Source of the DNA: an uncultured Mycoplasmatota bacterium
GTDB taxonomy: Bacteria > Bacillota_I > Bacilli_A > RF39 > UBA660
Reading direction: 5' to 3'
Length of the DNA stretch: 64,000 nucleotides
NCBI GenBank assembly: GCA_946413985.1
Contig: CAMKMS010000002.1
Coordinates: 42,094 to 106,093, forward strand
Position 1 is the stretch's first letter, and each line of letters begins with the position of its first letter. Both the position numbers and the translations under genes were made by a program. Under the pieces are notes generated by a model. It had not been told where the DNA came from. It ran no database searches and saw only the letters and a list, made by a program, of their open reading frames with translations. This document shows, in pieces, positions 4,041 through 64,000 of this stretch.

Positions 4041-4076
4041 ATGTGTTAAAATTTATTTGTAGAATAGAGGTATTGT

Positions 4077-7000: not shown

Positions 7001-8327
7001 TAAATCAGGATACAAATTTAATAAATGGTATGATCCAACAGGAGACCATGGATGGACAAATTGGTCAGGAAAATGGGAATGGGAAAATGGCAAATATGGT
7101 ATTAATAATAATACATTAACCTTAAAAGCTCAATGGGAAAAAAATACCGAAACATATACAATTAAGTATTATTGCGATTTTGCAAATTTATCAAATGCCC
7201 CTTATAAAACACAAACAGTATCAGCAGGAGATACAATAGCAATAGTAAAAAATGATTGCCCAAATAATACAGATAATATAGCTAAATGGTATGATCCAAC
7301 AGGAGATAATGGATGGACAAACTGGACAGGAAAATGGACTTATAAAAAGGGTCAATATGGAATAAATGATGATAATGTATTAATACTAACATCAGTTCCT
7401 ACAGGTAGAGTTATAGATTACTATAATAGTAGTACACTTAGATATTGGATTGAAAAGTATGGTAATGCAAATAACAGAACTGCTAATAACAATTATTTAG
7501 TAACTCATGTTTGGGTTAATGATTCTTATAATCAATTGAAAATGGCAATTACTAAAAAGAAAAATGAAAATCAAACAGAAGAAATTCCAAGAACATGGAA
7601 GCTACCAAAAGAAATAATGCAAAATGAAATTAGTGAAAAAAGTTTAAATAGTAAAGGTCTAGTTGCAATAAATACAAGTCCAATGATAGGAGAAAATTTT
7701 GAATATTGTTCAAATTGTACTGATAGAAATTGGATAGGAACAGCTAGAATACCACTTAAAATCCATGATGGCAAAATTATTAGAAATTCTACTAAGCCTG
7801 AAGAAGTCGGTAATGTAACTAATGACATAATTTTATATATGCTAGGCAAAGATGGATATTTAACATATTATTATTTTGCTGGAAGAAAAAAAGATGCATC
7901 AGATTATAATACTATAAAAAATGCAAATGAAGATACATATAATACTATTATTAATACAGTCAAGCCAAAATATACATTTGGATTTGCACCAGCACTATTG
8001 TGGGAAGGTAATAGAACAGGCGCTTCAAAATGCACATCGGATTTTTGTACTATACCAAATCTTCGTCAATCAATATGCCAAATTGATAAAAATAATTTTA
8101 TTACTATTACAACTCTTTCTAATGATCAAAGTAATAGAAGAGGAGGTTTAACAATAGATGCTTTAACTCTTATTATGTTAAGGTACAATTGTAAAGTAGG
8201 TATGAACCTAGATGGTGGAGGCTCAACTTCATATTTCTATAAAAAGAATAATTCAGCATTAAATGAGATTAATGGATCATATTATGGCCGTAAAAATGTT
8301 GAAATGTTATATTTTGTAGAACAATAA
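4077..8327 (+). CDS. large surface lipoprotein with more than 10 Listeria-Bacteroides (Flg_new) repeats and a C-terminal phosphodiester-glycosidase (NAGPA/DUF2233)-like domain
   Basis: There is a lipobox (LSSC). The repeat GYxFxGWY recurs and the C-terminal part contains NLDGGGSTS. Confidence 0.75.
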   Translation: MRKVVKSFIFIMALFILSSCNKVKITFDYNCDNDDKHICDVSNSKIDCIIPTPTCKNYEFLGWYEEKENGSLVDLTKDFNESITLYAHYRLNEPIISPSILSELKEIEYTVSFDLNGGMGDSINSVNVLNGNVMPEINKKAPTRKGYTFMGWYDNIDYLKGIQYYNSKCESKVKYTKESDTILYAGWSKNGEKNYTITYISNNGTEDAIIQSAVAGKSTILSKNTFIKLGYQFKSWNTKADGSGKNYSEESSIVVNKDIKIYAIYEAITYNIEYSLDGATLGSNAPTSAVYNKMIKIDNPSKKYTVTLDNNGSGSNLNISSLVANQTFVGWTYSNGNNQTAQYKSNKSNNNVDWTNENTKVNANQFKNLRTENGTVKLIANFSNNLITLPNIAKNGYVCGYSTKTNSNEIEYLGGNKYTPTSDVKLYVVCTNTPLETNKIHFDKQGGSDGSTDIVATYGITLPSIEVPTKKGYIFEGYYSGKNGTNLEYYNKNGISNNKWNQKNDITLYAKWTAKQLTIIYYKNDTTDNNYSDNYIYDENMDDNYFAPKTGMDIREGYTFKGWSFKKDGSDNIRYKFKDTIGDSWFLKQVGNDVKKTINLYAIWEPIKITVKYECGSGTTGSAPGNATATFGQTFTTSKTTGTCKKAGYTFSKWYDPTGDHGWTNWSGTWSWVNGKYGIANNTLTLTAQWTKNEYTIKYDCGTGASGTAPTNQKVLYENTVTIAKNAGSCVKTGYSFSKWYDPTGDHGWTNWSGKWEWENGKYGIANNVLTLTAQWIPNKYTITFDCNGGTKPSGKLESKTVTYNQKYILPSDLCTKPGYKQKEWNDQKNIKWTSSNTVNWTWTYDYNPILKAVWEPKTYKITFDCNGGTKPSGKLESKEIKYGEKYTLPSDLCTKKGNKQTEWRDQKNTKWTSSNTVNWTWSYDYNPTLKAQWTADEYTIKYECGDGVTGTPPSNQKVLYGNTVTIAKNAANCSKSGYKFNKWYDPTGDHGWTNWSGKWEWENGKYGINNNTLTLKAQWEKNTETYTIKYYCDFANLSNAPYKTQTVSAGDTIAIVKNDCPNNTDNIAKWYDPTGDNGWTNWTGKWTYKKGQYGINDDNVLILTSVPTGRVIDYYNSSTLRYWIEKYGNANNRTANNNYLVTHVWVNDSYNQLKMAITKKKNENQTEEIPRTWKLPKEIMQNEISEKSLNSKGLVAINTSPMIGENFEYCSNCTDRNWIGTARIPLKIHDGKIIRNSTKPEEVGNVTNDIILYMLGKDGYLTYYYFAGRKKDASDYNTIKNANEDTYNTIINTVKPKYTFGFAPALLWEGNRTGASKCTSDFCTIPNLRQSICQIDKNNFITITTLSNDQSNRRGGLTIDALTLIMLRYNCKVGMNLDGGGSTSYFYKKNNSALNEINGSYYGRKNVEMLYFVEQ
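5895..7390 (+). repeat. tandem in-frame coding repeats, each about 240 bp: unit A three times (5895-6154, 6155-6413, 6888-7137), unit B twice (6414-6647, 6648-6887), and one degenerate copy
   Basis: Nucleotide identity is near perfect, for example the stretch aaatggtatgacccaacaggagaccatggatgg...ggaaaatgggaatgggaaaatgg at about 6295-6360 and again at about 7025-7095. Confidence 0.85.
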
Positions 8328-8345
8328 ATTGTTTATAATTATGAA

Positions 8346-8385
8346 AGTATAAATTCATTAATAAATGATTTATACTTTTTATTTT
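8346..8385 (+). terminator. intrinsic terminator after the lipoprotein gene
   Basis: The stem agtataaat/atttatact is followed by a T-rich tract. Confidence 0.5.
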
Positions 8386-8456
8386 ATTTGAATAAAAGAT
8401 ATGTTAAAATAATAGATAGATAAAGGACATATTATGTGTTTAAATAAGGAGTAATT

Positions 8457-10013
8457 ATGTATAGGAATGAAAAATTATTAATTGGTAAAAATGAAAATAA
8501 AGAAGTTTGTATTTTACCAAACATGGCTAATCGTCATGGTCTTATTACTGGAGCAAGTGGTTCTGGTAAAACTGTTACATTAAAAGTGTTATCAGAAAGT
8601 TTTTCTGATGCAGGTGTTCCAGTATTTGTTGTTGATGTTAAAGGTGATCTTGCTGGTATGCCTTTTCAAGGTGAAGCAAGCGAAAGCATATTAAAAAGAG
8701 TTGAAAAATTGGGACTTGAAGATTTTGAACTTAAAAGTTTTCCAACAACATATTATGATGTTTATGGTAAAAATGGACATCCTATTCGTGCAACTGTAAA
8801 AAGCATTGGTTCAAGATTACTATCTCGTATGTTAGATTTAACAGATACTCAAGAAGAAGTACTAGGTGTAACATTTAGAGTTGCTGATGATGAAAATCTT
8901 GAACTTATTGATTTAAAAGATCTTGATGCATTATTAAATCATGTAATTGATAATAGACAACATTATAGTGTTAAATATGGAAATATTTCAACTCAAAGTG
9001 TTACATCAATTAAAAGAGCAGTTCTTAATTTAGAAGATGCTGGAGGAAATTTATTCTTTGGAACTCCTTCATTTGATATAAAAGATTTTATGAAATATGA
9101 TTCTGAAACTGGAAGAGGATATATAAATATTTTAGATGCTCAAAGCTTGTTTAAAAATCCAACAACTTATGTAGTATTAATATTATGGCTTCTAACAACA
9201 TTATTTAATGAATTAGAAGAAGTTGGAGATTTAAAAAAACCAAAACTTGTATTCTTCTTTGATGAAGCACATTTAATATTTAGCGAAATGAAAGAAAATG
9301 TTATTAAGAGTTTAATTCAAATAGTAAAACTAATTAGATCTAAAGGAGTGGGACTATATTTCATTAGTCAAAGCCCTAGTGATATTAATGATGAAATATT
9401 AAGTCAACTTGGAAATAGAGTACAACATGTATTAAGAGCATATACAAAAACTGATGAAAAAAGTATTACTGCAGCAGCAAATGGATTTAGAAGTAATCCT
9501 GAGTTTGATACTGCAGAAATGATTAGACTTTTAGGAACTGGGGAAGCATTAGTATCATTCCAAAATGAAAAAGGTGAACCAGAAATAGTTGAAAAAGTTA
9601 CAATTCTACCACCTCAAAGTAGAATGGGAACTATAACTGATTATGAAAGAGCTGAACTAATTAAGAATAGTAGATTATATGGTAAATATGAAGAGGTAAA
9701 AGATTTAGAAAGTGCTAGTGAAAAATTAGAAAAGCAAAAAGAAGATAAGAAGAGAAAAGAAGAGGAAGAAGCTAGAGAACTTGAATACAAAAAGAGAGAA
9801 GAAGAATTAAAGAAAAGAGAAGAAGAATTAAAATTAAAAGAAGAGAAAATTCAAGCAAAAACATATTCTGCTCCACTTAAAACATCAAGTAAATCTAGTT
9901 CTAAGAAAGGTAAATCAATAACTGAAAAAGTTGGAGATCAACTTGTTAATAAAACAATTGGTAAAGCCACTAGTAAAGTTGTAAATTCTTTGTGGAAAAA
10001 TATATTTAAATAA
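8457..10013 (+). CDS. HerA/DUF853-like P-loop ATPase with a Lys/Glu-rich C-terminal tail
   Basis: The Walker A motif is GASGSGKT and the Walker B motif is VFFFDEAH. The tail contains KREEELKKREEELKLKEEK. Confidence 0.7.
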   Translation: MYRNEKLLIGKNENKEVCILPNMANRHGLITGASGSGKTVTLKVLSESFSDAGVPVFVVDVKGDLAGMPFQGEASESILKRVEKLGLEDFELKSFPTTYYDVYGKNGHPIRATVKSIGSRLLSRMLDLTDTQEEVLGVTFRVADDENLELIDLKDLDALLNHVIDNRQHYSVKYGNISTQSVTSIKRAVLNLEDAGGNLFFGTPSFDIKDFMKYDSETGRGYINILDAQSLFKNPTTYVVLILWLLTTLFNELEEVGDLKKPKLVFFFDEAHLIFSEMKENVIKSLIQIVKLIRSKGVGLYFISQSPSDINDEILSQLGNRVQHVLRAYTKTDEKSITAAANGFRSNPEFDTAEMIRLLGTGEALVSFQNEKGEPEIVEKVTILPPQSRMGTITDYERAELIKNSRLYGKYEEVKDLESASEKLEKQKEDKKRKEEEEARELEYKKREEELKKREEELKLKEEKIQAKTYSAPLKTSSKSSSKKGKSITEKVGDQLVNKTIGKATSKVVNSLWKNIFK

Positions 10014-10023
10014 AAGGTATGTT

Positions 10024-10680
10024 ATGCAAATAATTGACAAAAATGATTGTTATGTTAGTAAAGACGATTTATTATACTTATTTGATAATGATGAGTGTAT
10101 GCCTCTAAGTCTTCAAATAGAATTAAGAAGTGCATTAATAAATAATTCAGATTATGTAAAAGTAAATGATGAAATTGGTTTAGAATACATTTATAATAGT
10201 AGTGTTCCTACATTTAATGATTTATCAAAGTTAAAAATAGCTGAATTAAAAAGAAGAATACATGCTATTATTATTGAAGATATGATTAGAGATAATGAGG
10301 GAGAAAACTTACCTTTAAATGAAGTAATAAGAGAAAAAAGAAATAGACAGTATATGATAAAGCAATTAAAAGAAATGATTGCTTTTAAAAAGAAAAAACC
10401 AAAAGTATTATATCCTGATATTCCATACCCATATTTAACGGGTATTACTAATGGAAATTATAATGCTTGTTCATCATATAATTTTGATAGAGTTATTATT
10501 TATAATATAGATGGAAGTATAGTTAGTGATGTAGATGATATAGAATTTTGTAAAAGTTCATTTAGATTATTAACTTATAATACTAATCCTGATGATGAAT
10601 TAGATATGAATTTTGATGGAAATTACTTTGTTGTAAAAAGTAAACAGAAAAATTTAAAAAGAAAAAGAATAGTTGACTAA
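10024..10680 (+). CDS. hypothetical protein
   Basis: This is a 218-aa ORF with no recognisable motif. Confidence 0.4.
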   Translation: MQIIDKNDCYVSKDDLLYLFDNDECMPLSLQIELRSALINNSDYVKVNDEIGLEYIYNSSVPTFNDLSKLKIAELKRRIHAIIIEDMIRDNEGENLPLNEVIREKRNRQYMIKQLKEMIAFKKKKPKVLYPDIPYPYLTGITNGNYNACSSYNFDRVIIYNIDGSIVSDVDDIEFCKSSFRLLTYNTNPDDELDMNFDGNYFVVKSKQKNLKRKRIVD

Positions 10681-10694
10681 AGTCAACTTTTTTC
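10671..10694 (+). terminator. intrinsic terminator overlapping the stop codon
   Basis: The hairpin agttgact-aa-agtcaact is followed by T6. Confidence 0.55.
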
Positions 10695-10739
10695 TTTTAA
10701 AAACATATAAAATATGTTAGAATATATTAGGAGGATATT

Positions 10740-12452
10740 ATGAATAAAGTAACAGCAATAATAGCACTTGTATTTTTAGTTATTATGGGTTTATTATTTG
10801 TTTTAAGGCTTATTATAAAAAGAAAAAACAAAAATAATATTTCAGCTACTATAGATTATCTTACTACTGAAAAGAATATGATAATATCCGATAGTTTAAT
10901 AACTGAACTAGGAAAAGCTAGTAAATTAGTTAATAATAAGAAAATAGAAAAACAAGTAAGTGATTGGAAAAAGAGATTTGAAGATATTGAAAAAATAGAT
11001 ATGCCAAAATTAACTGATGAATTAATTGAGGCAGAAAATTTAAGTGTTAATAAAGATATTGATGGAGCTTATATAGCACTTCAAAAATGTGAAAAAGATA
11101 TTTTTTTAGTAGAAGCAAAAGCTACTTCTCTTTTGAATGAAATAAGAGATCTTACTGAAAGTGAAGAAAGAAATAGAGAAGCAGTTACAAAATTAAAGAG
11201 TATATATAGAGAAATTATTTTTAAATATAATAAAAATAAAAATGATTATCAAAATGTATCTAATAGAATAGAATTACAATTTGAAAATATAGATAAATTA
11301 TTTAGTGCTTTTGAAACATCAGTTCAGAATAAAGAATATGAAGAATTGTCTAAAATAGTTAAAGTTCTTGATGATATGATAAACAACATAAGCATTGTTA
11401 TAGATGAAGCACCAACTATAGTAATGATGGCAACTATGGTTCTTCCTAAAAAAATGAGTGATATAAAAAGTGTTAGTACTAAGATGACTAAAGATGGTTA
11501 TAATCTAGAATATTTAAATATTGATTATAATATTGAAGAAACAAATAAAAAAATAGAAGAAATAATGGATAGATTAAATGTTCTTAACTTACAAGATTCT
11601 ATTTTTGATTTAAAAACATTAATAGATTATTATGAAGGACTTTATAGTGATTTTGATGCTGAAAAAAGAGGAAAAAAGAATTTTGAAAGAGGAATTATAA
11701 ATGTAGATGAAAGATTAAGAAAAACAACATCTATAGTTAAGAATTTATATTTAGAAATAGGTAATATTAAAGATACTTATGATTTAAGTGATGATGAAGT
11801 AAAAATAGTTGATGAAATAAATAACGAATTAAATGAGGTAAAAGAATCTTTTAAAGCAATAAATGATAGAACTTTGATTAAAGTTATGCCATATTCACGT
11901 CTTTCAAATGAGTGTGAAATGGTCGCTGTAAATTTATCTAAAGTTGAAGATAAATTAGAGACAACACTTAAGAATTTAGGAAGTTTAAAAGAGGATGAGG
12001 CAAGAGCACGTGATCAATTATATGAAATCAAAAATATTATAAATAATTCTAAGTATAAAATTAAAGATTATGATTTACCATTAATTCCTAGTAAGTTTTA
12101 TATTGAATTAAAAGAAGCATATGATGCTGTTAAAGAAATAAATAAAGAAATTGATAAGAAACCAATATCAATTAAAACATTAAACTTAAGAGTTGATACT
12201 GCTCGTGATTTAGCACTTAAATTGTATCAAACGGCTTCAAGTACAACTAAAACTGCAGCTATGGCAGAAATGGCTATAGTTTATGGAAATAGATATAGAT
12301 CAAGTAATAAAGATGTAGAAAAAGGGCTAATTGAAGGAACAAAGGCTTTTGAAAATGGAGACTATACAAAATCTTTAGAACTTGTTTTAGGTGCAATTAA
12401 TATAGTTGAACCGGGAATTCAAAAAAAATTATTAAACATGATGGAAAGTTAG
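10740..12452 (+). CDS. ezrA: septation ring formation regulator EzrA
   Basis: The protein has an N-terminal TM segment and about 550 aa of coiled coil. Its position before ftsK and its length (570 aa) fit EzrA. Confidence 0.75.
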   Translation: MNKVTAIIALVFLVIMGLLFVLRLIIKRKNKNNISATIDYLTTEKNMIISDSLITELGKASKLVNNKKIEKQVSDWKKRFEDIEKIDMPKLTDELIEAENLSVNKDIDGAYIALQKCEKDIFLVEAKATSLLNEIRDLTESEERNREAVTKLKSIYREIIFKYNKNKNDYQNVSNRIELQFENIDKLFSAFETSVQNKEYEELSKIVKVLDDMINNISIVIDEAPTIVMMATMVLPKKMSDIKSVSTKMTKDGYNLEYLNIDYNIEETNKKIEEIMDRLNVLNLQDSIFDLKTLIDYYEGLYSDFDAEKRGKKNFERGIINVDERLRKTTSIVKNLYLEIGNIKDTYDLSDDEVKIVDEINNELNEVKESFKAINDRTLIKVMPYSRLSNECEMVAVNLSKVEDKLETTLKNLGSLKEDEARARDQLYEIKNIINNSKYKIKDYDLPLIPSKFYIELKEAYDAVKEINKEIDKKPISIKTLNLRVDTARDLALKLYQTASSTTKTAAMAEMAIVYGNRYRSSNKDVEKGLIEGTKAFENGDYTKSLELVLGAINIVEPGIQKKLLNMMES

Positions 12453-12462
12453 GTGGTTTTTT

Positions 12463-14727
12463 GTGGCAAAAAGAAAAAGACAAAAAAAAGAGAAAAAAGG
12501 ATTCGCATATGCAAATGAATTAATTGGATTATTACTTATATTATTATCAATAACTGGTCTTGGTTCATTTGGAGTAGTTGGAAATCTAATAAAGAAATTT
12601 GCAATTTTTATGTTTGGAACATGGTCAGTATTATTACTTGTATTAATATTGATTCTTGGAATTGCAATGATAGCTAAAAGAGGTAAAGTTAATTATTTTA
12701 CAGGTAGGCTTCTTGGAGTTTATGCTTTAGTTATTGCTCTTTTATTGTTTTCTCATCTAAATTATATTAGTGATAATGAACTTTCTGGAAAAGAAATAAT
12801 TACTACAACTATGAATAATGTTGAAGTTGCTTTTGATACTGGAAGTGATATAAATACTGGCGGTGGAATGGTGGGATCTGTCATTTCTTGGGCATTTGTA
12901 TCATTATTCTCTACTGAAGGAACAATGGTTGTTATAGTAGCTATAGTAATATTTGGATTAATAATGATATTTGATATTACACTTTCAGATATTGGACATG
13001 CTATTGCTGCTGTTTTCCAAAATAGAGGAAAAGATGATGATGAGGAAGATGAAAAACCAGTTAAACTAGTAAAAGAAAATAAAAATCTTGAGCAAAGGTT
13101 AATTGGTGATATGAATGAAGAAGATGATAAACAAATAGATAAGAGAGTAGTTATCACTTCTGTTGAAGATTTAGAACCTAAAAAAGAAGAAGTAAAAGAG
13201 ATTAAAAATGAAATAAAAGAAGAGAAAATTGATGAGATTAATGAAATATATATTAAGCCACCAATTGATTTATTAGATGCTTCTAAAAATAAAGGTTCTA
13301 AAGCTAATTCAACTGAAATAATAAATCAAAATACTAAAACGATTGAAAGAGTATTTAATGATTTTGGAATGCTTGCAAAAGTAGTAGAAGTTCATGTTGG
13401 ACCAGCTGTTACTCAATATGAAATGACACTTCAAAGAGGAACAAAAGTTAATAAAGTACTTAGTATTTCTCGTGAAATAGCTCTTGCTCTTGCTGCAAAA
13501 GAAGTAAGAATTGAAGCTCCGATTCCAGGAAAAAACACTGTTGGAATTGAAGTACCAAATCAAAATATTATTCCAGTATCTATGAGAGAAATAATGGATG
13601 CTATGTTTAAAAATCACAAATTAGATGATTCAAAATTAGCTGCCCCACTTGGTAGAGATATAATGGGTAATGTTAAATATGTTGAAATTAATAAAACTCC
13701 ACATATGTTAGTAGCTGGAGCTACTGGTAGTGGTAAATCTGTTTGTATTAATAATATAATATTATCAATTATTATGAGAACAACTCCTGATGAAGTAAAA
13801 ATGGTGCTTGTTGATCCTAAAAAAGTTGAATTTAATGTATATGATGGAATTCCACATTTGCTTACTCCAGTTGTAACTGATCCTAAAAAAGCATCTGCTG
13901 CATTACAAAAAATAGTTGTAATGATGGATGATAGATATGAAACATTTAAAAATAGTGGAACAAAGAATATATCAACATATAATGAGTATGTTGAAAAAGA
14001 ACTTAAAAAGAAACCAGATTGTGGTTTAAGAAAGATGCCATTTATTTTGGTTATCATAGATGAGCTCGCTGATTTAATGCTTGTTGCCGCTAAAGAAGTA
14101 GAAGAGTCAATTATGAGAATAACTCAATTAGCTCGTGCTGCTGGTATTCATTTAATAGTTGCAACTCAAAGACCATCAACAGATATTATTACTGGTGTTG
14201 TAAAATCAAATATACCAACTCGTGTATCATTTGCTGTTTCTTCTAGTATAGATTCTCGTACAATACTTGATATGACAGGAGCAGAAAAACTACTTGGTAA
14301 AGGTGATATGTTATATAAACCAATGGATGATAATGCTCCAACTCGTATTCAAGGTTCATTTGTATCAGATGATGAAATAGAAAGAGTAGTTGATTTCATT
14401 AAAGAAAGAAGTCATGGGCCTAGATATAGTGATGAATTTGAAAGAATTAGCTCATCTTCTATAAGTGATGATGAAACATCCAGTGGATCATCAGGAATAA
14501 GTGAAGAAGATAAGAAAGATGTATTATATGATGAAATATTAAATTATGCTATTCGTATGGGACAAATAAGTGCATCATTAATTCAAAGAAAATATTCTAT
14601 TGGATATAATAGAGCAGCACGTATTATGGATATATTTGAAGAACGTGGAATAGTTGGTCCTGCTAAAGGAAGTAAACCAAGAGATGTTCTTGTTAAATAT
14701 GGTGATGAAACAGAAGGAGAAGAATAA
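12463..14727 (+). CDS. ftsK: DNA translocase FtsK/SpoIIIE
   Basis: It has a GTG start after the RBS aggtgg, N-terminal TM segments, and the motif GATGSGKS. The C-terminal FtsK-gamma region is winged-helix-like. Confidence 0.9.
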   Translation: MAKRKRQKKEKKGFAYANELIGLLLILLSITGLGSFGVVGNLIKKFAIFMFGTWSVLLLVLILILGIAMIAKRGKVNYFTGRLLGVYALVIALLLFSHLNYISDNELSGKEIITTTMNNVEVAFDTGSDINTGGGMVGSVISWAFVSLFSTEGTMVVIVAIVIFGLIMIFDITLSDIGHAIAAVFQNRGKDDDEEDEKPVKLVKENKNLEQRLIGDMNEEDDKQIDKRVVITSVEDLEPKKEEVKEIKNEIKEEKIDEINEIYIKPPIDLLDASKNKGSKANSTEIINQNTKTIERVFNDFGMLAKVVEVHVGPAVTQYEMTLQRGTKVNKVLSISREIALALAAKEVRIEAPIPGKNTVGIEVPNQNIIPVSMREIMDAMFKNHKLDDSKLAAPLGRDIMGNVKYVEINKTPHMLVAGATGSGKSVCINNIILSIIMRTTPDEVKMVLVDPKKVEFNVYDGIPHLLTPVVTDPKKASAALQKIVVMMDDRYETFKNSGTKNISTYNEYVEKELKKKPDCGLRKMPFILVIIDELADLMLVAAKEVEESIMRITQLARAAGIHLIVATQRPSTDIITGVVKSNIPTRVSFAVSSSIDSRTILDMTGAEKLLGKGDMLYKPMDDNAPTRIQGSFVSDDEIERVVDFIKERSHGPRYSDEFERISSSSISDDETSSGSSGISEEDKKDVLYDEILNYAIRMGQISASLIQRKYSIGYNRAARIMDIFEERGIVGPAKGSKPRDVLVKYGDETEGEE

Positions 14728-18082: not shown

Positions 18083-19222
18083 ATGAAGAGTAATAAAGGA
18101 TTTACATTAGTAGAACTACTTGCAGTAATAGCAATATTAGCAATATTAGTATTAATAGCTCTTCCAAATACAATTGAAATGTTTAAAGAAGCAAAAAAGA
18201 ATTCATTTTTAACAGAGTGTAAACAAATATATAAAACAGCTCAAAATCAATGGATGAGTGATTCAATGTTTGAAACAAATGATCAACTATATTCAAGATG
18301 TAATGATTGTACAGGAAAAAAATTGAAATTAAGTGGAAGAGAAGAAATAGACTATTATATTAAATTAAATAAGGCTGGAAAAATAACAGATTTTTATATT
18401 ACAGATAATACTTTTCAATATAAGTATAATGGAGCTAACCTTCTTATTACTGATATAACTGAAGCAGAAGAAATAGCTAGTGTTGGAAATGAAGATATAA
18501 TTAAAATAGAAAATAATAATGTATTTAAAGGCACAACTCTTTTAACAAAAGAGAAAAACAGAAAGTTTGATATTATATATCAAGCAACTCCTGGAACTTT
18601 AACACTTGGAGATGAAGTGGCAATTGATACTGAACATTTTATTGTTTTGGAATCTGATTCAAGTAAAACAACAGTAATTGCGAAGTATAATTTAAATGTT
18701 GGGAATTTTTTGGTTACAAGTGCTCAAGAAGGACTCCAAAGCTCTGGTGCTAATGGATATATAAACAATTTTAATAAATATGGTTGTGTTGCATTTTCTG
18801 GTTCAAAATATTGGGAAGGAAAAACTGGTAATAATAAAAAATATCCTGGTAAATTGGGTACTAGTCCATATGCATTTGTTTATGATAATGATTATAAAGA
18901 TGCATCTGGTAGCAATTATAGTGTTGCATATTATGTTAATCAATATATAGATTATTTAAGCGGTTTTGTTTCATTTAATATGGTTGGTAGAATTCCACAA
19001 ATTACTGATTTAGATAAAGGAAGAACTTTAAGATCATATGATAATGTACTAGTTTTTCAAAAACAATGTTTCTTAATGGGGTCTGCTTGGAGTTCTAGTT
19101 ATATTATTGCATATACCCCTTCTGACTATTTTGATAATAATAATACACCAACTGCTTATAATGATAATACAACAGGTGGAGTAAAAGTGGTATTGGAAGT
19201 AGCCACATCATCAATTTTATAA
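18083..19222 (+). CDS. prepilin-type N-terminal cleavage/methylation domain protein (class III signal peptide), a large 379-aa pilin or pseudopilin
   Basis: The N-terminus is MKSNKGFTLVELLAVIAILAILVLIALPNT. Confidence 0.8.
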   Translation: MKSNKGFTLVELLAVIAILAILVLIALPNTIEMFKEAKKNSFLTECKQIYKTAQNQWMSDSMFETNDQLYSRCNDCTGKKLKLSGREEIDYYIKLNKAGKITDFYITDNTFQYKYNGANLLITDITEAEEIASVGNEDIIKIENNNVFKGTTLLTKEKNRKFDIIYQATPGTLTLGDEVAIDTEHFIVLESDSSKTTVIAKYNLNVGNFLVTSAQEGLQSSGANGYINNFNKYGCVAFSGSKYWEGKTGNNKKYPGKLGTSPYAFVYDNDYKDASGSNYSVAYYVNQYIDYLSGFVSFNMVGRIPQITDLDKGRTLRSYDNVLVFQKQCFLMGSAWSSSYIIAYTPSDYFDNNNTPTAYNDNTTGGVKVVLEVATSSIL

Positions 19223-39383: not shown

Positions 39384-39402
39384 TTAGAGAGGAGTGAAGA
39401 AC

Positions 39403-41757
39403 ATGAATAATAAGCAAAGACTTATTATTAGTGTGGTTACATTCCTCGCTTTTGCATTAATGAGCGTAGGATTTGCCACATATCGAGTTAGACTTAATGT
39501 TACAGGGGTTGCAACTTTTAGTAAAAATGGTAAAATTGCTATAACCAATGTTAGATTAATTTCATCAAATAATATAACAGACCTACAAGATCCAACATTT
39601 ACTGATGATAGTATAAATTTTAATTTAAATTTTAGCGTTGAAAATCAAAATGAACTTGCTCAAGAGTATTCAGCAACATATGAAATCACTATGACTAATG
39701 ATTCTTTTTATAATTATATATTTGCAAGTAATTTGTTTGTTCCTTCTATAGAAACTACAAATAATGAAAATCTTGATGTTGCTTTTTCAATTGAAGGAAT
39801 TGATATTGGTGATATAATTCCAAGTAAAGACGTAGTGACATTTACTGCAATTCTAGATATGTATCCTAAAGATACTGGGGATTATAATGTTAGTGGGGAA
39901 GTGCAAATTGGTACAGAACAAGGTGATACTCCACCTACATATTCTTTAATGGGTAGTATACCTAAAAACACAACATTAGATTTAACTGGTTCAACTACTA
40001 TGCAAAGTGTTAAATTAACTGTTATCAATACTTATCCAGAAAGTAAAACATTTAATATTTCAAATAGTGGTAATAGTTTTTCTGTTGTTAATAGTAGTGG
40101 AAATGCTTTAGGAACTTTATCAGTTGGAGCTGAAGATACAGAAGAATACTATATATATATAAAGAGAAGGAATGGAGTAACTTTTCCATCTTCTCCACAA
40201 AAAATAAATTTATATTTTACTCCTACTGATGGAAATAGGACTGGACTTGGTTCAATTTCAATTCTTGTTGATGTTGATAATTCCATTCTTGATGATGAAC
40301 CACCAATTATTAGTAATGTTAATGCCGATATTGTTTATGAAGATGGTAAAATTAAAGTTACATGGGATGCTACTGATGATAGTGGAATAGATCATTTTAT
40401 AATAGAAATGTATAATGATAGTGATACTTTACTTAATACTATTACTACTTCTGATTCATCAGAAGAATATACATTTTCATCATTAAGTGCAGGGACTTAT
40501 TATTTTAAAGTATATGGAGTAGATAATTCTTCTAATCATAATAATGGTCAATCCGTTTCAACTACGTGTACTACTTCTGATGGTTATTGTTCAAGGAGTA
40601 CATCATCTTCTTATCAATGGACATTCAATGTAACAAATAGTTGTTCAAACTGTACTTTTACTGGTAATAATAGTGTTTTTATAGGTTCAACTTATACGGC
40701 AACAGTACGAGCATCTAATTGGTATAATTTACCAAATACTATAACTGTAACTATGAATAATACACAATTATCTACTTCTCAATATACATATAATCAAAAT
40801 AATGGTTCAATTAGTATTCCAAATGTAACAGGAAATTTGAATATTCAAGTAACAGCATCATTTGCTTGTTTAGTAAAAGGAACTAAAATTTTACTTGCAA
40901 ATGGAGAATATAAAAATATTGAAAATATTACTTATAATGATTTATTAGCTGTATGGAATTATGAAACAGGAAGTTTAACTTATGAATATCCAATATGGCT
41001 TGAAAACAAAGCATATACTAATAAATATACAAAAACTACATTTAGTGATGGAACATATTTAAAAACTGTTGCTCTTCATGGTTTATTTAGTCCAACTTAT
41101 AATGAGTTTATTTCAGTTAATGATAGTGAAAAGTATAAAGTTGGTACTAAAATACTTAAGATAGTAGATGGTAAATTTAAAGAAGTAACAATCAAAAAGA
41201 TTGAAACAATTAATGAAAAAGTAGAATATTATCATGTTGTTTCAACAAGATATTATAATGTTATTGCTAATGATGTGTTGACTACCGATGGAACTGTAAT
41301 TCTATCAAACCTATATGGTTTTTCTGATAATATTACATGGCCAAGTGTTAGAAATGAAATAATGGCTAGTGGATTATATTCATATAACGAATTTAAAGAT
41401 ATTATGCCTTATTATATGTTTAAAGGATTAAGAGTGGAAGAAGGAAAAGTACTACAAAAATATGGTTATACTAAAGATATTTTTAGATATTATTTACTTA
41501 ATAATCAATTAAATGAACATATGATGAAAAAAATAGACACTTCTATAAATGGCAAAAGATTATGGATGGTTAGCACTTCTTTAGATGAAATTAATGAATT
41601 AAATATGAATAATTTCTTACATGAAGAAGGATCTATGTATAAACTTCCAAATGCTTTGGGTGTAAGAAAGTGGTATTCAACTTCTGAAAATAAATATTAT
41701 AATCCATCTGATACTATAGAAGTAGTTCATGGAATGCATTTTATAGCAATTAAATAG
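39403..41757 (+). CDS. large secreted protein with a SipW-cognate-like N-terminus, an FN3-like domain, a Hint (intein-like) domain, and a 150-aa C-terminal domain of unknown function
   Basis: The N-terminus ...ALMSVGFATYRVRLNVTGVATFS parallels that of the 36590 gene. The Hint module runs from CLVKGTKILLANGE... (block A) through KTVALHGLF (TxxH-like) to YYHVVSTRYYNVIANDVLTT (C-block). Confidence 0.6.
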   Translation: MNNKQRLIISVVTFLAFALMSVGFATYRVRLNVTGVATFSKNGKIAITNVRLISSNNITDLQDPTFTDDSINFNLNFSVENQNELAQEYSATYEITMTNDSFYNYIFASNLFVPSIETTNNENLDVAFSIEGIDIGDIIPSKDVVTFTAILDMYPKDTGDYNVSGEVQIGTEQGDTPPTYSLMGSIPKNTTLDLTGSTTMQSVKLTVINTYPESKTFNISNSGNSFSVVNSSGNALGTLSVGAEDTEEYYIYIKRRNGVTFPSSPQKINLYFTPTDGNRTGLGSISILVDVDNSILDDEPPIISNVNADIVYEDGKIKVTWDATDDSGIDHFIIEMYNDSDTLLNTITTSDSSEEYTFSSLSAGTYYFKVYGVDNSSNHNNGQSVSTTCTTSDGYCSRSTSSSYQWTFNVTNSCSNCTFTGNNSVFIGSTYTATVRASNWYNLPNTITVTMNNTQLSTSQYTYNQNNGSISIPNVTGNLNIQVTASFACLVKGTKILLANGEYKNIENITYNDLLAVWNYETGSLTYEYPIWLENKAYTNKYTKTTFSDGTYLKTVALHGLFSPTYNEFISVNDSEKYKVGTKILKIVDGKFKEVTIKKIETINEKVEYYHVVSTRYYNVIANDVLTTDGTVILSNLYGFSDNITWPSVRNEIMASGLYSYNEFKDIMPYYMFKGLRVEEGKVLQKYGYTKDIFRYYLLNNQLNEHMMKKIDTSINGKRLWMVSTSLDEINELNMNNFLHEEGSMYKLPNALGVRKWYSTSENKYYNPSDTIEVVHGMHFIAIK

Positions 41758-42859: not shown

Positions 42860-44449
42860 ATGAAATCAAAAATAATTAGTATTGTTATTACACTTGTATT
42901 TGGATTTGTTTATTTTTATATAGCACTTCCTGCGTTAAACATTCATACAAATGAATTCTGGTTTTTTATTGTATTACTAATACTATGTTATTTATTAATT
43001 ACAAATATTAGTAGTACGAAAGAAGTTGTTACAGGTAAAATTACTTTAGCAAGAGCCGTTAAAAAGAATAAAGTACTTTTAATTATACCAACTATATTTG
43101 TTTTAATAGCTATACTTGACTTTTTTGGTAGTCCAATTTTTAATGCTAAAAAATATGCAAGTAGGATTACAATTGATGAAGCAAACTCTTTTACTGAAGA
43201 TGTTGAAAAGGTAGATTTTTCTAAATTACCATTACTTGATAAAGATAGTAGTCAACAATTAGGTGATAGAGTAATGGGTCAAATGAGTGATTTAGTAAGT
43301 CAATTTAATGTTTCTAATCTTTATACTCAAATAAATTATAATGGTAAGATTGTTAGAGTTACTCCTCTTGATTATGCTGATTTTATTAAATGGATTACGA
43401 ATAGAAAAGAAGGGGTAAAAGGATATATCACAGTTAATAGTACATCTGGAGAAAGTAATCTTGTAAGACTAGATAAAGGAATGAAATATGTTGAAAGTGG
43501 ATACTTTAATGATAACTTATATAGAAAACTTAGATTTGATTATCCATTTGATTCTTTTGGTAGAATTTCTTTTGAAATAGACGAAGAAGGTCATCCTTAT
43601 TGGATTATTCCAGTTATTAAATATAGATTAATTGAATTAAGACGTGAAGTAAGTGATATTATTATTTTAGATCCTATAACTGGAGAAAGTAGTAAAAGAA
43701 AAGTAAGCGAAGTTCCTTCTTGGGTAGATATGGTATATCCTGCCGATTTAATTATTGAGGAAGTTGATGATTGGGGAACTTATAATAAAGGATATTTTAA
43801 TAGTATATTTGGTCAAAAAAATGTTGTAAATACAACTGAAGGTTATAACTATTTGGCTTATAATGATGATATTTATTTATATACAGGTATTACATCTATT
43901 GTTGCTGATGAATCTAATTTAGGTTTTATACTTACAAATATGAGAACAAAAGAAACAACATTTTATAAAGTACCTGGTGCTGAAGAATATAGTGCTATGG
44001 CTAGTGCAGAAGGAGCAGTACAACATTTAGGATATACTTCAACATTCCCACTTTTGATTAATCTAAATAATAAACCAACTTATTTGGTAAGTTTAAAAGA
44101 TGCAGCAGGTCTAGTTAAAATGTATGCATTTGTTGATGTAACAGATTATCAAAGAGTTGTTGTAACAGACTCTTCAAAAGGAATTTTAGAAGCTGCTCAT
44201 AATTATTTGGGTGATAAAAAGCATACTCTTTCAAATGAGGAATTAAATACTAAAGATATAACTATTAAAAGAATAAGTAGTGCTATTATTGAAGGAAATA
44301 CATATTACTATATAATTGATAGTAATAATAAAAAGTATAAAGTTTCAATTAATGTGAGTGATGATTTACCATTCTTAGTTAGTGGAAATAAAATCAGAAT
44401 TGGTTATGCTTTAAATGAAAATATAACAATTATAAATAAAATATATTAA
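42860..44449 (+). CDS. membrane protein with 2 N-terminal TM segments and a large extracytoplasmic domain, function unknown
   Basis: A 529-aa ORF with no motif recognised. Confidence 0.45.
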   Translation: MKSKIISIVITLVFGFVYFYIALPALNIHTNEFWFFIVLLILCYLLITNISSTKEVVTGKITLARAVKKNKVLLIIPTIFVLIAILDFFGSPIFNAKKYASRITIDEANSFTEDVEKVDFSKLPLLDKDSSQQLGDRVMGQMSDLVSQFNVSNLYTQINYNGKIVRVTPLDYADFIKWITNRKEGVKGYITVNSTSGESNLVRLDKGMKYVESGYFNDNLYRKLRFDYPFDSFGRISFEIDEEGHPYWIIPVIKYRLIELRREVSDIIILDPITGESSKRKVSEVPSWVDMVYPADLIIEEVDDWGTYNKGYFNSIFGQKNVVNTTEGYNYLAYNDDIYLYTGITSIVADESNLGFILTNMRTKETTFYKVPGAEEYSAMASAEGAVQHLGYTSTFPLLINLNNKPTYLVSLKDAAGLVKMYAFVDVTDYQRVVVTDSSKGILEAAHNYLGDKKHTLSNEELNTKDITIKRISSAIIEGNTYYYIIDSNNKKYKVSINVSDDLPFLVSGNKIRIGYALNENITIINKIY

Positions 44450-59317: not shown

Positions 59318-59445
59318 TTCTTCACCAATAATATTATACTATATTTATATATATTTTTCCAATTAATGATATTTTTGTTGTAAAGTATCTTTCAATTAAT
59401 AGCAGAATATGTTATTATATTATCGTAGATAGTAGAGGAGTTTAT

Positions 59446-61050
59446 ATGAAAAAGAATTTGATTATTTTTTATATTTTATTGATTATGTTTTCTTTTTTTG
59501 CTTATACATTAAGTGTAGATGCATCTGAACAAGATTGTTCAAATTTTAAAAGTAGCGCTGCTAAAAACGCATGTATTAATGTTGAAAGATATTGTTCTCA
59601 GGGTGTAGATGCTGTAGGAGGTTGTCAGTATGATAAGAATAATACATTATACACTCGTGCAAAAACTAAAGCTTGTTATGGAACTAATTGTATAACATTA
59701 GAAGGAACGTTAACAAGAGGATATCAAGCTGTAGATAAAAATGGAAAAGCAGCTTTTGCTGGTTGTTATAAAGTTGAATATGCAGGAAATACTACTTCAG
59801 AAAACAAAAGATTTTCTAAAGGAACATATTATATTTTTAAAATTTTATCACCAGCAAAAGATTGTAAAGAATCAAAAGCATATTATGATATAGTACCTCC
59901 AAATAATATTGCTGGTTATGACGGAAAGAATGCAATTGGAGGAGATTCAGCAACATATAAATGGGTGGCTAAAAATAATGGTAATTGTCCTGTTATGTTT
60001 GGTTTAACTGGAAATACTACTTTTTGGACTGCTAAAAGGAATACTTATGTATTTGCTGATAATGAAAATGATTTGAAATTAGATAAAGCTCAATTTAGAA
60101 TATTTTTTTGGAATAGTGAAAAATATGAGACTTCAGCTGGATGTACTGTTCAAGATAAAGAAGGATTTGAACAAGCAATTAAGTGTTATGATGACACAAT
60201 AACAATTCTAAATGATGATAATCAAACAAAGTGTCCACCAGATTTTAAAGATTTGGCTGCATATAAAGAAAAATTAAATGGTTTGGCAGATAAATGTGGA
60301 CCTGAAATCGAAAAACTATATAGAATTACTTACTTAAAGGAAAATGCAGAAATATTTACTACAAAACTAAAAGAAGCAGTAAATAAGAGATTAACTTCTT
60401 GTCAATTTGGAAATTGTAATTTAACTGAAACTGAAACAAATTGTATAAATAATGAAATTAAAAAACAGAATTGTCCAAATGGATGTTCTGGTAAAACTGG
60501 AACAGAATATGATGCTTGCTTTAATTGTTTAAAAGGTGTTTATGAATCTAGTACTTGTAAACTTGGATCTACAAAATCTCAATGTTTAATTGATTCACAA
60601 AAACAAAAAGATGAAGCTGTTACAGAATTAGGTGAAGGAGTATCTCAAGATCAACAAGAACATGTTGAGCATGAACAACAAGAAAGTGAGCAAATTAGAC
60701 ACAGTTTATATTCAACTTATGCAACTCAACCACTTGACATTGAAGTACCAGAAATGCCTGGAGAAGGTGGAGGAGAAATATCTGAGTGCGATAAAATATT
60801 GGGATCTGATTTAACTGCTGTTGTAAAAGCAAGTATTACAATACTTCAAATCGTAGGAGCAATTATTGCAGTTGTAAAAGGTATGATGGTATTAATACCT
60901 CCAGTATTAGCAAAAGATGCAGATGCACTTAAAAAAGCATCTAAAACTCTTGTTACAATGGCTATAATATTAGTTGTAATCTTCTTATTTAGACCATTAT
61001 TAAGATTCTTAGGAAGTATTCTTGATTTTGATACATCATGTATATTATAG
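59446..61050 (+). CDS. secreted cysteine-rich protein (about 24 Cys) with a C-terminal VirB2/TrbC-pilin-like two-helix membrane module
   Basis: It has a signal peptide and a Cys-rich ectodomain of about 400 aa, then an acidic linker, then ...CDKILGSDLTAVVKASITILQIVGAIIAVVKGMMVLIPPVLAKDADALKKASKTLVTMAIILVVIFLFRPLLRFLGSILDFDTSCIL. Confidence 0.6.
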   Translation: MKKNLIIFYILLIMFSFFAYTLSVDASEQDCSNFKSSAAKNACINVERYCSQGVDAVGGCQYDKNNTLYTRAKTKACYGTNCITLEGTLTRGYQAVDKNGKAAFAGCYKVEYAGNTTSENKRFSKGTYYIFKILSPAKDCKESKAYYDIVPPNNIAGYDGKNAIGGDSATYKWVAKNNGNCPVMFGLTGNTTFWTAKRNTYVFADNENDLKLDKAQFRIFFWNSEKYETSAGCTVQDKEGFEQAIKCYDDTITILNDDNQTKCPPDFKDLAAYKEKLNGLADKCGPEIEKLYRITYLKENAEIFTTKLKEAVNKRLTSCQFGNCNLTETETNCINNEIKKQNCPNGCSGKTGTEYDACFNCLKGVYESSTCKLGSTKSQCLIDSQKQKDEAVTELGEGVSQDQQEHVEHEQQESEQIRHSLYSTYATQPLDIEVPEMPGEGGGEISECDKILGSDLTAVVKASITILQIVGAIIAVVKGMMVLIPPVLAKDADALKKASKTLVTMAIILVVIFLFRPLLRFLGSILDFDTSCIL

Positions 61051-61064
61051 TTGAAATTAAATAC

Positions 61065-61093
61065 AAAGCATGTTAATATATACATGCTTTTTT
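61065..61093 (+). terminator. intrinsic terminator between the two paralogues
   Basis: The hairpin aaagcatgt-taatatat-acatgcttt is followed by T6. Confidence 0.5.
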
Positions 61094-61108
61094 ATTAGGA
61101 GGAATTTA

Positions 61109-61483
61109 ATGAAAAAAAAGTATTTTAAAGTAATTATTTTTGTTTTATTATTATTCTTATTCTGTACTATAAGAGCAGAAGGTATTGAAGTTCCAACTAT
61201 TCCAAGTGGTGAATTGAGTTCATGTGAAGAAATATTGGGCCACGATTTAGCAGCAATTGTAAAAGCAGGAATAACTATTATTCAAATAGTAGGTGCAATA
61301 ATAGCAATAGTAAAAGGTATGATGGTATTAATACCTCCAGTATTAGCAAAAGATGCAGATGCACTTAAAAAAGCATCTAAAACACTTGTATCATTAGCAA
61401 TAATATTAATTGTTATATTTTTATTTAGATCAATACTTATGTTTTTGGGAAATATATTAGATTTTGATACTTCTTGTATTTAA
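61109..61483 (+). CDS. small secreted VirB2/TrbC-pilin-like protein, paralogue of the C-terminus of the preceding gene
   Basis: The RBS aggagg supports a start at 61109. It has a signal peptide followed by the same roughly 95-aa module, which is more than 85% identical. Confidence 0.6.
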   Translation: MKKKYFKVIIFVLLLFLFCTIRAEGIEVPTIPSGELSSCEEILGHDLAAIVKAGITIIQIVGAIIAIVKGMMVLIPPVLAKDADALKKASKTLVSLAIILIVIFLFRSILMFLGNILDFDTSCI

Positions 61484-61638
61484 TAATAAATTTCTCTTTT
61501 TTTTTATAAAAAAATGTGTTAAAATAAGTTGGCTTTAAGAAAAAAGACATGCATATTGATTTAATATTCTAGTGCTATTTATATAGTGGATATTAATTTA
61601 AAGGTATGCAGAAGAAAAAAACGAAAGGAGAGAGAATT

Positions 61639-62568
61639 ATGGCAGTTATTGCAAAAAGTTATTTATTAGAAGCAGGTGTTCATTTTGGACATCAAGCAAA
61701 AAGATGGAATCCTAAAATGAAGGAATTTATCTTTACTACAAGAGATGATATTCATATTATCGATTTACAAAAAACTGTTGAAAAAATTGAAGAAGCTTAC
61801 GCTGAACTTCTTAAAGCATGTGAAAATGGTGGTAAGGTTCTATTTGTTGGTACTAAAAAACAAGCTAAAGAAGCTTGTCAAGAAGAAGCAACAAGATGTA
61901 ATAGTTTTTATGTAACAGAAAGATGGTTAGGAGGTACTTTAACTAATTTTAGAACAATTAGAGAAAGAATTAAAAAACTATCTGAAATCGAAGAAATGGA
62001 AAAATCTGGAAAATTTGAATTACTTCCTAAGAAAGAAGTAGCTAAGTTACAAAAGGAATATAACAGATTAAATACATTACTTTGTGGTATAAGAGAAATG
62101 GATAAATTACCAAAAGCAGTTATTATAGTTGATCCAAGAGTAGAAATTAATGCTATTAAAGAAGCTAGAAGACTACATATTCCAGTATTTGGAATTGTTG
62201 ATACAAACTGCGATCCAGATGATGTAGACTATCCAATTCCATCAAATGATGATGCTGTTAGAAGTGTTAAAGTTGTTTTAGGAGTTTTAGCTAATGCTGT
62301 TTGTGAAAGTAATGGACTTCCTATAGTTGATTATGTAACTGAAGATGAAACTACTGCAAAAGCAGCAAAAGAGATTAAAGTTGAAACTAAAGTAGTTGAA
62401 TTAGATGATTTTAGTGAAGAACAAATCGAAGAAGTTAAAAAAGAAAAAGAAGAAGCTGTTGATTATAGTAAAATGACAGTTGCTGAACTAAAAAAACTTG
62501 CTAAAGAAAAAGGAATATCTGGATATTCAACTATGAAAAAAGATGAATTAATTTCATCATTAAATTAG
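61639..62568 (+). CDS. rpsB: 30S ribosomal protein S2
   Basis: The RBS aaaggagag and the start [19 protein letters not shown] were preferred over the upstream ATG at 61606. Confidence 0.9.
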
Positions 62569-63500: not shown

Positions 63501-64000
63501 TTAATTTTTACAAGAATCTTTATTATCTTCCCATTTAATTGGTTCATATACTGTTCCAAAGAACCATATATTATCTGAATTCTTTTCTTTAATTATGTAA
63601 ATAAATGGTTTGTTAAATTCAATTCTAATTGTATTTTTTTCTCCAATGAATGCACTATTTTTTTCTATTAAGAATGCTGTAACAGCTGCTGCTTTAGTTC
63701 CATTTTCAGAAAGTTCAATATGAGTTTTATGAATAGATTTACTTACAAATAATTGTAATAATGAATTACTATTAAGCATTTTTTTGAAATTCGCATTGTC
63801 TCTATTAAATGCCTCATTCATTCCTAAATTATTTAACATTTTTTGAAAATCATCATATGTATAATCATAAGTATATTTTGGTAAAGAATAATAAATATCT
63901 GTATTAGAATCACTTCTTTTTTGAGTTTTAAGTAAATTATTTAATTCTTTATCATCAAATGTTTTTAAATATTCACTTACATCTTTATTTGGTAATATTG
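63501..64000 (-). CDS. serpin (serine protease inhibitor), C-terminal portion; the gene continues beyond the window end
   Basis: The reactive-centre-loop hinge is ENGTKAAAVTAF, the serpin signature is FNKPFIYII, and the frame stays open through 64000. Confidence 0.65.
   Translation of the reverse strand, partial: ILPNKDVSEYLKTFDDKELNNLLKTQKRSDSNTDIYYSLPKYTYDYTYDDFQKMLNNLGMNEAFNRDNANFKKMLNSNSLLQLFVSKSIHKTHIELSENGTKAAAVTAFLIEKNSAFIGEKNTIRIEFNKPFIYIIKEKNSDNIWFFGTVYEPIKWEDNKDSCKN

Follow-up and report, generated by a model that had tools for sequence, protein, structure and literature searches.

Introduction

What does a membrane hairpin do when it ends two neighbouring proteins, one of them little more than the hairpin itself and the other bearing a large cysteine-rich domain in front of it? 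The question is raised by a 64-kb stretch of DNA (64,000 nucleotides of contig CAMKMS010000002.1 from an uncultured Mycoplasmatota bacterium, hereafter the window). Two co-directional open reading frames (ORFs) lie there on the plus strand, at 59446-61050 (534 amino acids, aa) and, as called, at 61070-61483, flanked by recU-ponA upstream (minus strand) and by rpsB-tsf downstream (plus strand). An earlier note, made from the sequence alone, had rightly placed the pair between recU-ponA and rpsB, had taken the two products for paralogues and had likened their common part to the VirB2/TrbC pilins of type IV secretion systems (T4SS). We propose here, with moderate confidence, that both are Sec-exported membrane proteins of a lineage-specific family in which the hairpin anchors variable surface proteins and also serves as a self-association unit.

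Results

Two proteins share one C-terminal module

BLASTP aligned the long and the short protein over their C-terminal ends only (long 432-533, short 39-137 in the ORF-caller's numbering), with 79 of 102 residues identical (77%, E 2e-52), and the module DNA of the two genes is 81% identical. The pair is thus paralogous through a common C-terminal module, as had been claimed. This module is about 100 aa long and follows a simple plan. A short lead-in and an invariant Cys are followed by two helices, of ~35 and then ~34 residues, with a basic turn (AKDADALKKASK) between them, and an invariant D-x-S-C stands 1-3 residues from the end. In the long protein the lead-in, whose motif IEVPxMPGxxxxISE is common to both forms by BLASTP, precedes Cys448, helix 1 (449-489), the short basic turn, helix 2 (492-526) and the end D-x-S-C532-I-L. 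The short protein consists of a signal peptide (aa 1-23, ending I-R-A), a 15-residue lead-in, Cys39, helices 45-79 and 83-116 joined by the turn, and the end DFDTSC123-I.

AlphaFold2 yielded a two-helix hairpin for the long and the short protein alike, bearing out the earlier description of two hydrophobic helices joined by a short loop; in both proteins the hairpin depends on a signal peptide. The long model, built on a 23-sequence alignment, has a mean predicted local distance difference test (pLDDT) of 81.5 and a predicted template modelling score (pTM) of 0.70; mean pLDDT of the short model is 72.7, with ~79-86 over the helices. Cleavage of the signal peptides would occur after VDA26 in the long form and after IRA23 in the short form; the long-form signal segment is modelled as a helix, with residues 20-26 at low confidence.

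Between signal peptide and module, the long form carries an ectodomain of ~405 aa (residues 27-431), and its description as a fusion of a Cys-rich ectodomain of roughly 400 aa to the module therefore holds. The count of about 24 Cys ahead of the module is right as a total only, since 22 precede the module and 2 lie within it. Most of the 22 ectodomain Cys are located in the core (aa 27-373), and among 23 homologues 12 Cys columns of the long form are invariant and 4 nearly so, the two module Cys included. The stalk segment that follows the core is E/Q-rich and variable in the family alignment. The ectodomain had no match in Pfam, NCBIfam, PHROGs or PDB sequences, nor by Foldseek in PDB or BFVD, where the long model gave nothing below E 0.05 and long-helix matches only. 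Two candidates were dropped: a fusexin- or viral-glycoprotein-like ectodomain, for which Foldseek gave no structural match, and a lipoprotein anchor, because the sequence contains no lipobox.

Where does the short protein begin? The start is most likely ATG 61109, 7 nt after AGGAGG, and not the ORF-caller's ATG 61070, because ATG 61109 combines a consensus ribosome-binding site (RBS) with a match to the 124-aa database protein P0001. ATG 61070 falls within an intergenic hairpin described below.

The module defines a large family

A profile search with the module over 1.84 billion protein cluster representatives returned 1030 matches at E<=1e-3, 216 at E<=1e-10 and 40 at E<=1e-30. In all 150 matches listed (proteins of 89-966 aa) the module was a single stretch at the extreme C-terminus, and the protein end coincided exactly with the profile end in 162 of 196 sequences. 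Bare short forms account for 71 of 212 module-bearing sequences, and BLAST separates the 133 members that have a sizeable ectodomain into at least 19 distinct groups, all with Cys. Word-indexed searches found ~30 relatives for each window protein, none annotated and, for the long form, all of the same architecture; the same kind of search with a diverse module profile returned short forms only and no Pfam-annotated relatives. Direct Pfam, NCBIfam and PHROG scans of the two window proteins gave nothing meaningful (the only NCBIfam trace was a signal-peptide match, E 1.5), and PDB sequence-profile searches with three alignments gave only a de novo designed helical protein and helices of G-protein-coupled receptors, or nothing. 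The family is large and lineage-specific, and its defining C-terminal module is covered by no model of Pfam, NCBIfam or PHROG.

To what extent is this module conserved? The 207 most complete module sequences were aligned to the profile, and all 205 members that have residues at the two relevant columns carry both Cys, the first immediately ahead of helix 1 and the second 2-3 residues before the C-terminus. Essentially no variation occurs at P50, L74 and D94, and ~25 positions reach a conservation of at least 80% across more than 200 aligned members. Since the turn is basic (positive-inside rule) and the N-terminus is exported, the chain would run with its N-terminus outside, the turn in the cytoplasm and the C-terminus outside. 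This topology would bring the Cys pair side by side on the outer face, and a hairpin-closing disulfide is therefore the natural reading: the two invariant Cys probably form it.

Is the module then merely a membrane anchor or sorting tag, the short form being a remnant, a decoy or a small regulator of sorting with no role in assembly? The earlier note had named a generic tail anchor on many unrelated surface proteins as the finding that would speak against its own proposal, and we largely found this distribution: with more than 1000 cluster representatives, the module terminates hundreds of proteins with many unrelated ectodomains, enzyme domains (GDSL lipase, LytR_cpsA_psr) occur among 140 members scanned against Pfam, and the extreme C-terminal position is that of known C-terminal sorting domains. 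However, conservation at this level, with two invariant Cys and an invariant Pro and Asp, goes far beyond the needs of a passive transmembrane anchor. Moreover, the numerous bare short forms are syntenically conserved and are the sole family members at the site in some genomes, and the short form's own RBS and promoter-like element are conserved across six genomes. The module is too conserved and too often free-standing for a passive anchor, and we regard the anchor-only explanation as rather unlikely.

Hairpins evolve in concert beneath fast-evolving ectodomains

The earlier note had reported a 72-bp core identical in both copies and had suggested recent duplication or gene conversion. An identical core does exist, with a length of 74 nt. 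Beyond this core, 39 of the 62 codons compared differ between the two modules (24 synonymously, 15 non-synonymously), and the unchanged run of 24 codons is therefore not due to chance. Between genomes, the same 74-nt stretch of the window shows synonymous differences, which argues that its identity within the window does not reflect a constraint at the nucleotide level. The codon comparison thus supports a recent gene-conversion tract.

This behaviour extends to the relatives. Within one genome, most modules have a nucleotide identity of 0.75-0.90, with 0.72 in two more divergent genomes and maxima of 0.97 for the pair in locus L014 and 1.00 for two long forms in L004; between the genomes of close relatives it is 0.75-0.84. 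Modules resemble each other more within a genome than across genomes, and the positions of the long identical tracts differ from genome to genome. Such a pattern is what recurrent gene conversion leaves behind. Within the family, concerted evolution is clearest in L004, where the tandem long-form paralogues at 6383-8275 and 8339-10255 have divergent ectodomains and module DNA that is 100% identical over the 86 codons compared.

The ectodomain behaves differently. When the window was compared with its four closest relatives, Nth, PonA, RecU, RpsB and Tsf were 77-92% identical, the module 70-83% and the ectodomain only 30-54%. The exposed part therefore either evolves much faster than its surroundings or is exchanged.

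The short gene has its own promoter-like element

A spacer of 58 nt separates the long and the short gene and is conserved in six genomes. It holds a -35 element, an extended -10 element and a terminator-like hairpin that overlap (Table 1). Across genomes the extended -10 takes the form TGnTAATAT or TGnTATAAT, 17 nt beyond the -35, and in the six-genome alignment neither the TTG of the -35 nor the TG that precedes the -10 varies. The hairpin folds in six relatives: 96.3% of cells pair, three pairs show compensatory changes, and the observed score was reached by only 1 of 500 shuffles. When the partners were slid along, pairing fell to 37-70%. As judged from these sequences, the element may be a terminator of the long gene that overlaps a strong promoter of the short gene, and the short form would therefore be expressed independently and probably more strongly.

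The family occupies core chromosomal sites

All loci that we recovered belong to uncultured low-GC Bacilli of animal guts and rumen, with source names such as "uncultured Tenericutes", "Erysipelotrichaceae RUG" and "Bacilli bacterium", and one "Clostridia" metagenome-assembled genome. In each relative examined, the slot between recU and rpsB contains at least one family member, and its content varies: (i) a long and a short form in the window and in L001, L008, L011, L012, L018, L030 and L031; (ii) two long forms and a short form, in either order, in L004, L006 and L010; (iii) a short form alone in L020 and L037; (iv) a long form alone in L016; and (v) a different, class B-like ectodomain alone in L027. 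Homologous pairs, sought outside mobile elements at the suggestion of the earlier note, are thus found in conserved core-gene synteny. Family members also occur at other chromosomal sites: beside ddl/murF (L009), between glmS and CotH as a short form (L013, L040, L041), between RmuC and WecG (L038), as a long form between PBP2 plus a PilB-type ATPase and prepilin-proS (L014, L015, L042), and as two members after PilC-PilD-ileS (L032, L035, L036). In L009, a sortase-like protein is encoded at 2152-2847 (+), 2 kb upstream of the class B family member (TLSSC motif, identified by eye). On this reading the lineage has sortases, and the hairpin module would therefore be no substitute for a missing sortase system.

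The 64-kb window, and the ~6-10 kb around ~25 related loci in at least six genomic contexts, showed no VirB4, VirB6, VirD4, relaxase or integrase; the large ORFs of the window are housekeeping genes and none encodes VirB4 or VirD4. The earlier statement that such genes are missing nearby therefore extends to the relatives. By tblastn, neither 72,556 plasmids nor 50,697 phages contained a match to the family, the most pilin-like module had no match on plasmids, and a scan of IMG/VR found no relative on viral contigs. Judged by these collections and by the conserved synteny with core genes, the module genes are not mobile-element cargo.

The sole secretion-type neighbours in the loci examined are type IV pilus genes (PilB-type ATPase, PilC, PilD and prepilins). 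In L014, L015 and L042, a PilB-type ATPase gene lies divergently upstream of the long form and a prepilin gene directly downstream; in L032, L035 and L036, PilC (T2SSF) and the prepilin peptidase PilD lie 4 kb upstream of family members. L035 gives an example at 1353-10279, where PilC, prepilin peptidase and ileS are followed by two tandem module genes (450 and ~470 aa). We do not regard this link as established, because prepilin genes are very numerous in these genomes. Type IV prepilin-like genes with an N-terminal KGFTLVE motif are indeed unusually frequent in the lineage: copies are found in the window at 18083-19222 (+), whose product of 379 aa is large for a pilin, and in L001 (18448-19622), L006 (19274-20369), L014 (6349-6753), L015 (6338-6724) and L020 (231-458).

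Is the hairpin a pilin?

If the two proteins were true VirB2-like T4SS pilins, the short form would be the major filament subunit, the long forms would be modular minor pilins with an adhesin, and a VirB4 machine would be encoded elsewhere in the genome. The architecture agrees: both window proteins have the layout of the T4SS_pilin family PF18895, namely a signal peptide, two hydrophobic helices, a short polar (here basic) loop and a domain of ~70 aa. The VirB2-like pilin arrays of Patescibacteria were detected with the PF18895 model (10.1101/2025.01.22.634366). The tandem arrays of two or three divergent copies recall those of Patescibacteria, where virB4 is often distant, pilin genes lying near virB4 in only 1,135 of 1,948 assemblies (10.1101/2025.01.22.634366). 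An end-joining disulfide would, by analogy, mimic the head-to-tail cyclisation of TrbC/VirB2, and a short form with its own strong promoter-like element would suit a major subunit.

Sequence comparison gave a mixed answer. The two window proteins had no match to PF18895 or to TrbC/VirB2 (PF04956) even at E<=10. Among the 140 members scanned, four matched PF18895 at E<=0.01 and none matched PF04956 at that threshold. Of ten hand-picked members scanned individually against Pfam, five from one sub-branch had PF18895 as their top Pfam match, which spans positions 3-71 of the 71-position profile and coincides exactly with the module (P0177, 23.3 bits, E 6.7e-5; P0173, 18.9; P0166, 17.8; P0175, 16.8; P0182, 14.7), all below the gathering cutoff of 26.6 bits. 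The best of these members are located on contigs of only 1-2 kb. The pilin-like label of the earlier note thus finds a faint echo in five divergent members and none in the proteins for which it was coined. Likewise, hhalign of the module profile against Agrobacterium VirB2 (sequence verified against annotated Ti plasmids) gave a probability of 0.26%, E 0.23, over 17 columns, which cover only a common C-x-x-I-L-G-P motif, and Foldseek of the short hairpin model against PDB returned no matches, hence no pilin.

The setting also argues against true pilins: the T4SS context, one of the features that define such a pilin, is absent from the window and the ~25 loci, and the enzyme ectodomains of several members suit an anchor better than a pilus subunit. 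Patescibacteria excepted, VirB2 homologues are otherwise unknown in Gram-positive T4SSs (review, PMC12857230). Membership in the PF18895 family is not established, and we consider true T4SS pilins improbable. A remote homology of the module to the VirB2-like superfamily is a separate matter; it is plausible, the balance being roughly even. The hairpin is not a type IV pilin either, as a motif scan found no class III signal peptide motif G-F-T-L-x-E (N_methyl, PF07963) in the long or the short protein, and both have ordinary signal peptides. The signs of an LPXTG substrate (LPXTG motif, single helix, basic tail) are likewise absent from the two proteins, which end in LDFDTSCI(L) after two helices.

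Could the pair instead be a membrane-active effector, for example a holin-like or pore-forming hairpin in a toxin-immunity or bacteriocin-like pair, with the Cys-rich domain as its targeting part? Holins and immunity proteins are typically small membrane proteins with two helices, and the weak top Foldseek matches of the long model are the alpha-pore-forming toxins ClyA, SmhA and NheA (E>=0.39). Yet these are long-helix matches with TM-scores near 0.1, nothing significant was found in PHROGs, Pfam or the phage and plasmid collections, the site is a core chromosomal one between housekeeping genes in all relatives, and the many unrelated ectodomains are unlike a dedicated toxin pair. We therefore consider an effector pair highly improbable.

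Other genes of the window and related loci

Table 1. Coordinates of the gene pair, its protein segments and its control elements in the window.
Feature	Position	Strand	Basis and remarks
Shine-Dalgarno of long gene, GAGGAG	59435-59440	+	Read from sequence; 5 nt upstream of ATG 59446
Long form	59446-61050	+	ORF; 534 aa: signal peptide, Cys-rich ectodomain, helical stalk, flexible linker, C-terminal hairpin module
Predicted Sec signal peptide, long form aa 1-26	59446-59523	+	Basic n-region, hydrophobic core, AXA-like site; predicted cleavage after V-D-A
Ectodomain core, aa 27-373	59524-60564	+	Two N-terminal helices, beta-rich domain (~aa 57-237), helical domain (AlphaFold2, pLDDT mostly 85-96)
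Long acidic helix, aa 374-423, read as stalk	60565-60714	+	Continuous helix in AlphaFold2 model
Flexible linker, aa 424-447, with lead-in motif before first invariant Cys (C448)	60715-60786	+	pLDDT <50 at residues 429-450
C-terminal module of long form, aa 432-534	60739-61047	+	BLASTP against short form; profile matches; AlphaFold2 helices
Identical 74-nt tract, long copy (putative gene-conversion patch)	60874-60947	+	Codon-by-codon comparison with 61310-61383
Intergenic element	61051-61096	+	Three overlapping parts: -35, terminator-like hairpin with U-run, extended -10
-35, TTGAAA	61051-61056	+	Consensus scan; directly after long-gene stop codon
Terminator-like hairpin, 9 bp	arms 61065-61073 and 61082-61090	+	Followed by U-run 61091-61096
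Extended -10, TGtTAATAT	61071-61079	+	Consensus scan; TAATAT hexamer 61074-61079 within hairpin loop
Shine-Dalgarno of short gene, AGGAGG	61097-61102	+	Read from sequence
Short form, 124 aa	61109-61483	+	100% identical to database protein P0001
Identical 74-nt tract, short copy (putative gene-conversion patch)	61310-61383	+	Codon-by-codon comparison with 60874-60947

Several further genes deserve mention. The ribosomal protein S2 encoded downstream of the pair, at 61606-62568 (+), has a C-terminal extension that resembles the Rho N-terminal (SAP-like) domain, and its relatives are annotated PF00318 plus PF07498. Just downstream of tsf, all close relatives carry a serpin gene (window 63501-64000 (-), L001 12404-13681, L004 12378-14925, the last region with two tandem copies); because the gene runs off the end of the window, only its C-terminal part is contained there. 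A protein of 1416 aa encoded at 4077-8327 (+), with five Listeria-Bacteroides (Flg_new) repeats and a phosphodiester glycosidase (NAGPA) domain, is probably another large surface protein. It is followed at 8457-10013 (+) by a 518-aa P-loop ATPase of the HerA_C/DUF853 type (E 2.5e-177), which has a weak TrwB-like match, yet is neither VirB4 nor VirD4. Two ORFs at 39394-41757 (+) and 42860-44449 (+), of 787 and 529 aa, match no Pfam family at E<=1e-5. Finally, L035 encodes at 10687-13645 (-) two adjacent proteins of 487 and 509 aa with strong matches to the mTERF domain (E ~1e-57), a family mostly known from organelles.

Discussion

How might the two proteins work together? In the reading that we favour, the hairpin would both anchor these proteins in the membrane and let them self-associate, and a disulfide on the outer face would probably clamp it. 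The long protein would display its fast-evolving, disulfide-rich 405-aa ectodomain on a helical stalk and could be a variable surface protein that acts as an adhesin or binds a receptor. The short protein is a bare hairpin that seems to have a strong promoter to itself; the forms with an ectodomain would co-assemble with it as their common partner, and gene conversion among the copies of one genome would keep the hairpins mutually compatible. The hairpin itself may be distantly related to the VirB2-like T4SS_pilin family (PF18895), put to use outside type IV secretion.

Several points weigh against this proposal: (i) we infer, rather than observe, oligomerisation, the disulfide and surface exposure; (ii) the hairpin models are of moderate confidence only (pLDDT 65-86); (iii) the ectodomain resembles no known adhesin or other fold in the sequence and Foldseek searches; (iv) a terminator between the genes fits simple independent regulation too, and implies no particular stoichiometry; and (v) the similarity to PF18895 lies below threshold in one sub-branch only, and could reflect the composition of two transmembrane helices.

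A bolder version can also be formulated. A lineage of reduced-genome gut Bacilli might re-use a VirB2-like hairpin outside T4SS as a polymerising or co-assembling scaffold, building a decorated surface array or filament either without VirB4 or with an unrecognised machine. Bare subunits would then be combined with "modular pilins" that bear large disulfide-rich ectodomains at their outward N-terminal end, and a candidate machine would be encoded by the type IV pilus assembly genes that neighbour the family in two independent contexts. Taken as a whole, this version is speculative and we hold it to be doubtful.

Whichever account applies, a family of a thousand clusters in gut Bacilli either extends the VirB2 superfamily into a new role or represents a new kind of C-terminal anchoring and assembly domain, and in both cases the module marks major variable surface proteins of abundant uncultured rumen and gut bacteria. 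Annotators gain a domain that is absent from the Pfam, NCBIfam and PHROG models. Three testable predictions follow: the hairpin is closed by a disulfide, short and long forms co-assemble, and the ectodomain is under diversifying selection.

How does the family compare with known systems? The VirB2-like pilins of Patescibacteria are likewise small and dependent on a Sec signal, with two hydrophobic helices and a short basic loop, and they too are encoded in chromosomal tandem arrays of divergent paralogues in reduced-genome monoderm bacteria. In contrast, no locus of the present family has a virB4, virB6 or virB3 neighbourhood among those examined, the module usually ends a large ectodomain, and it carries two invariant Cys and a D-x-S-C end. 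The TrbC/VirB2 proteins (PF04956; Agrobacterium VirB2, RP4 TrbC) form a two-helix hydrophobic hairpin with both termini outside, as we predict for the module, and VirB2 shares with it the C-x-x-I-L-G-P motif before helix 1 that hhalign aligned. Conjugative VirB2 and TrbC pilins have their ends joined covalently by head-to-tail cyclisation, whereas a disulfide would bring the ends together here; the helices and loop of the module are also longer, and no T4SS operon lies at the loci examined.

Modular type IV pilins such as Streptococcus sanguinis PilB and PilC fuse a conserved pilin module to a large functional domain. They offer a parallel for a plain short subunit accompanied by larger paralogues in which an adhesive domain is joined to the common assembly module. 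Their design is different, however, as type IV pilins start with a class III signal peptide and have one helix, at the N-terminus, and the family described here has an ordinary signal peptide and a C-terminal module of two helices. C-terminal sorting domains (LPXTG/sortase, PEP-CTERM) resemble the module in being conserved, at the extreme C-terminus, on unrelated secreted proteins of one lineage. Such tags consist of a short motif, one helix and a basic tail and are removed or transferred, whereas the module has two long helices in ~100 aa, no LPXTG, and also exists as a free-standing protein.

The Vsp and Vlp proteins of Mycoplasma form families of variable surface lipoproteins anchored by an N-terminal lipid. 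Unlike these lipid-anchored proteins, the present family is without visible repeats or phase-variation switches. The two nevertheless have much in common: a conserved anchor joined to a fast-diverging exposed region, gene conversion within a multigene family, and a copy number that varies at a fixed chromosomal site.

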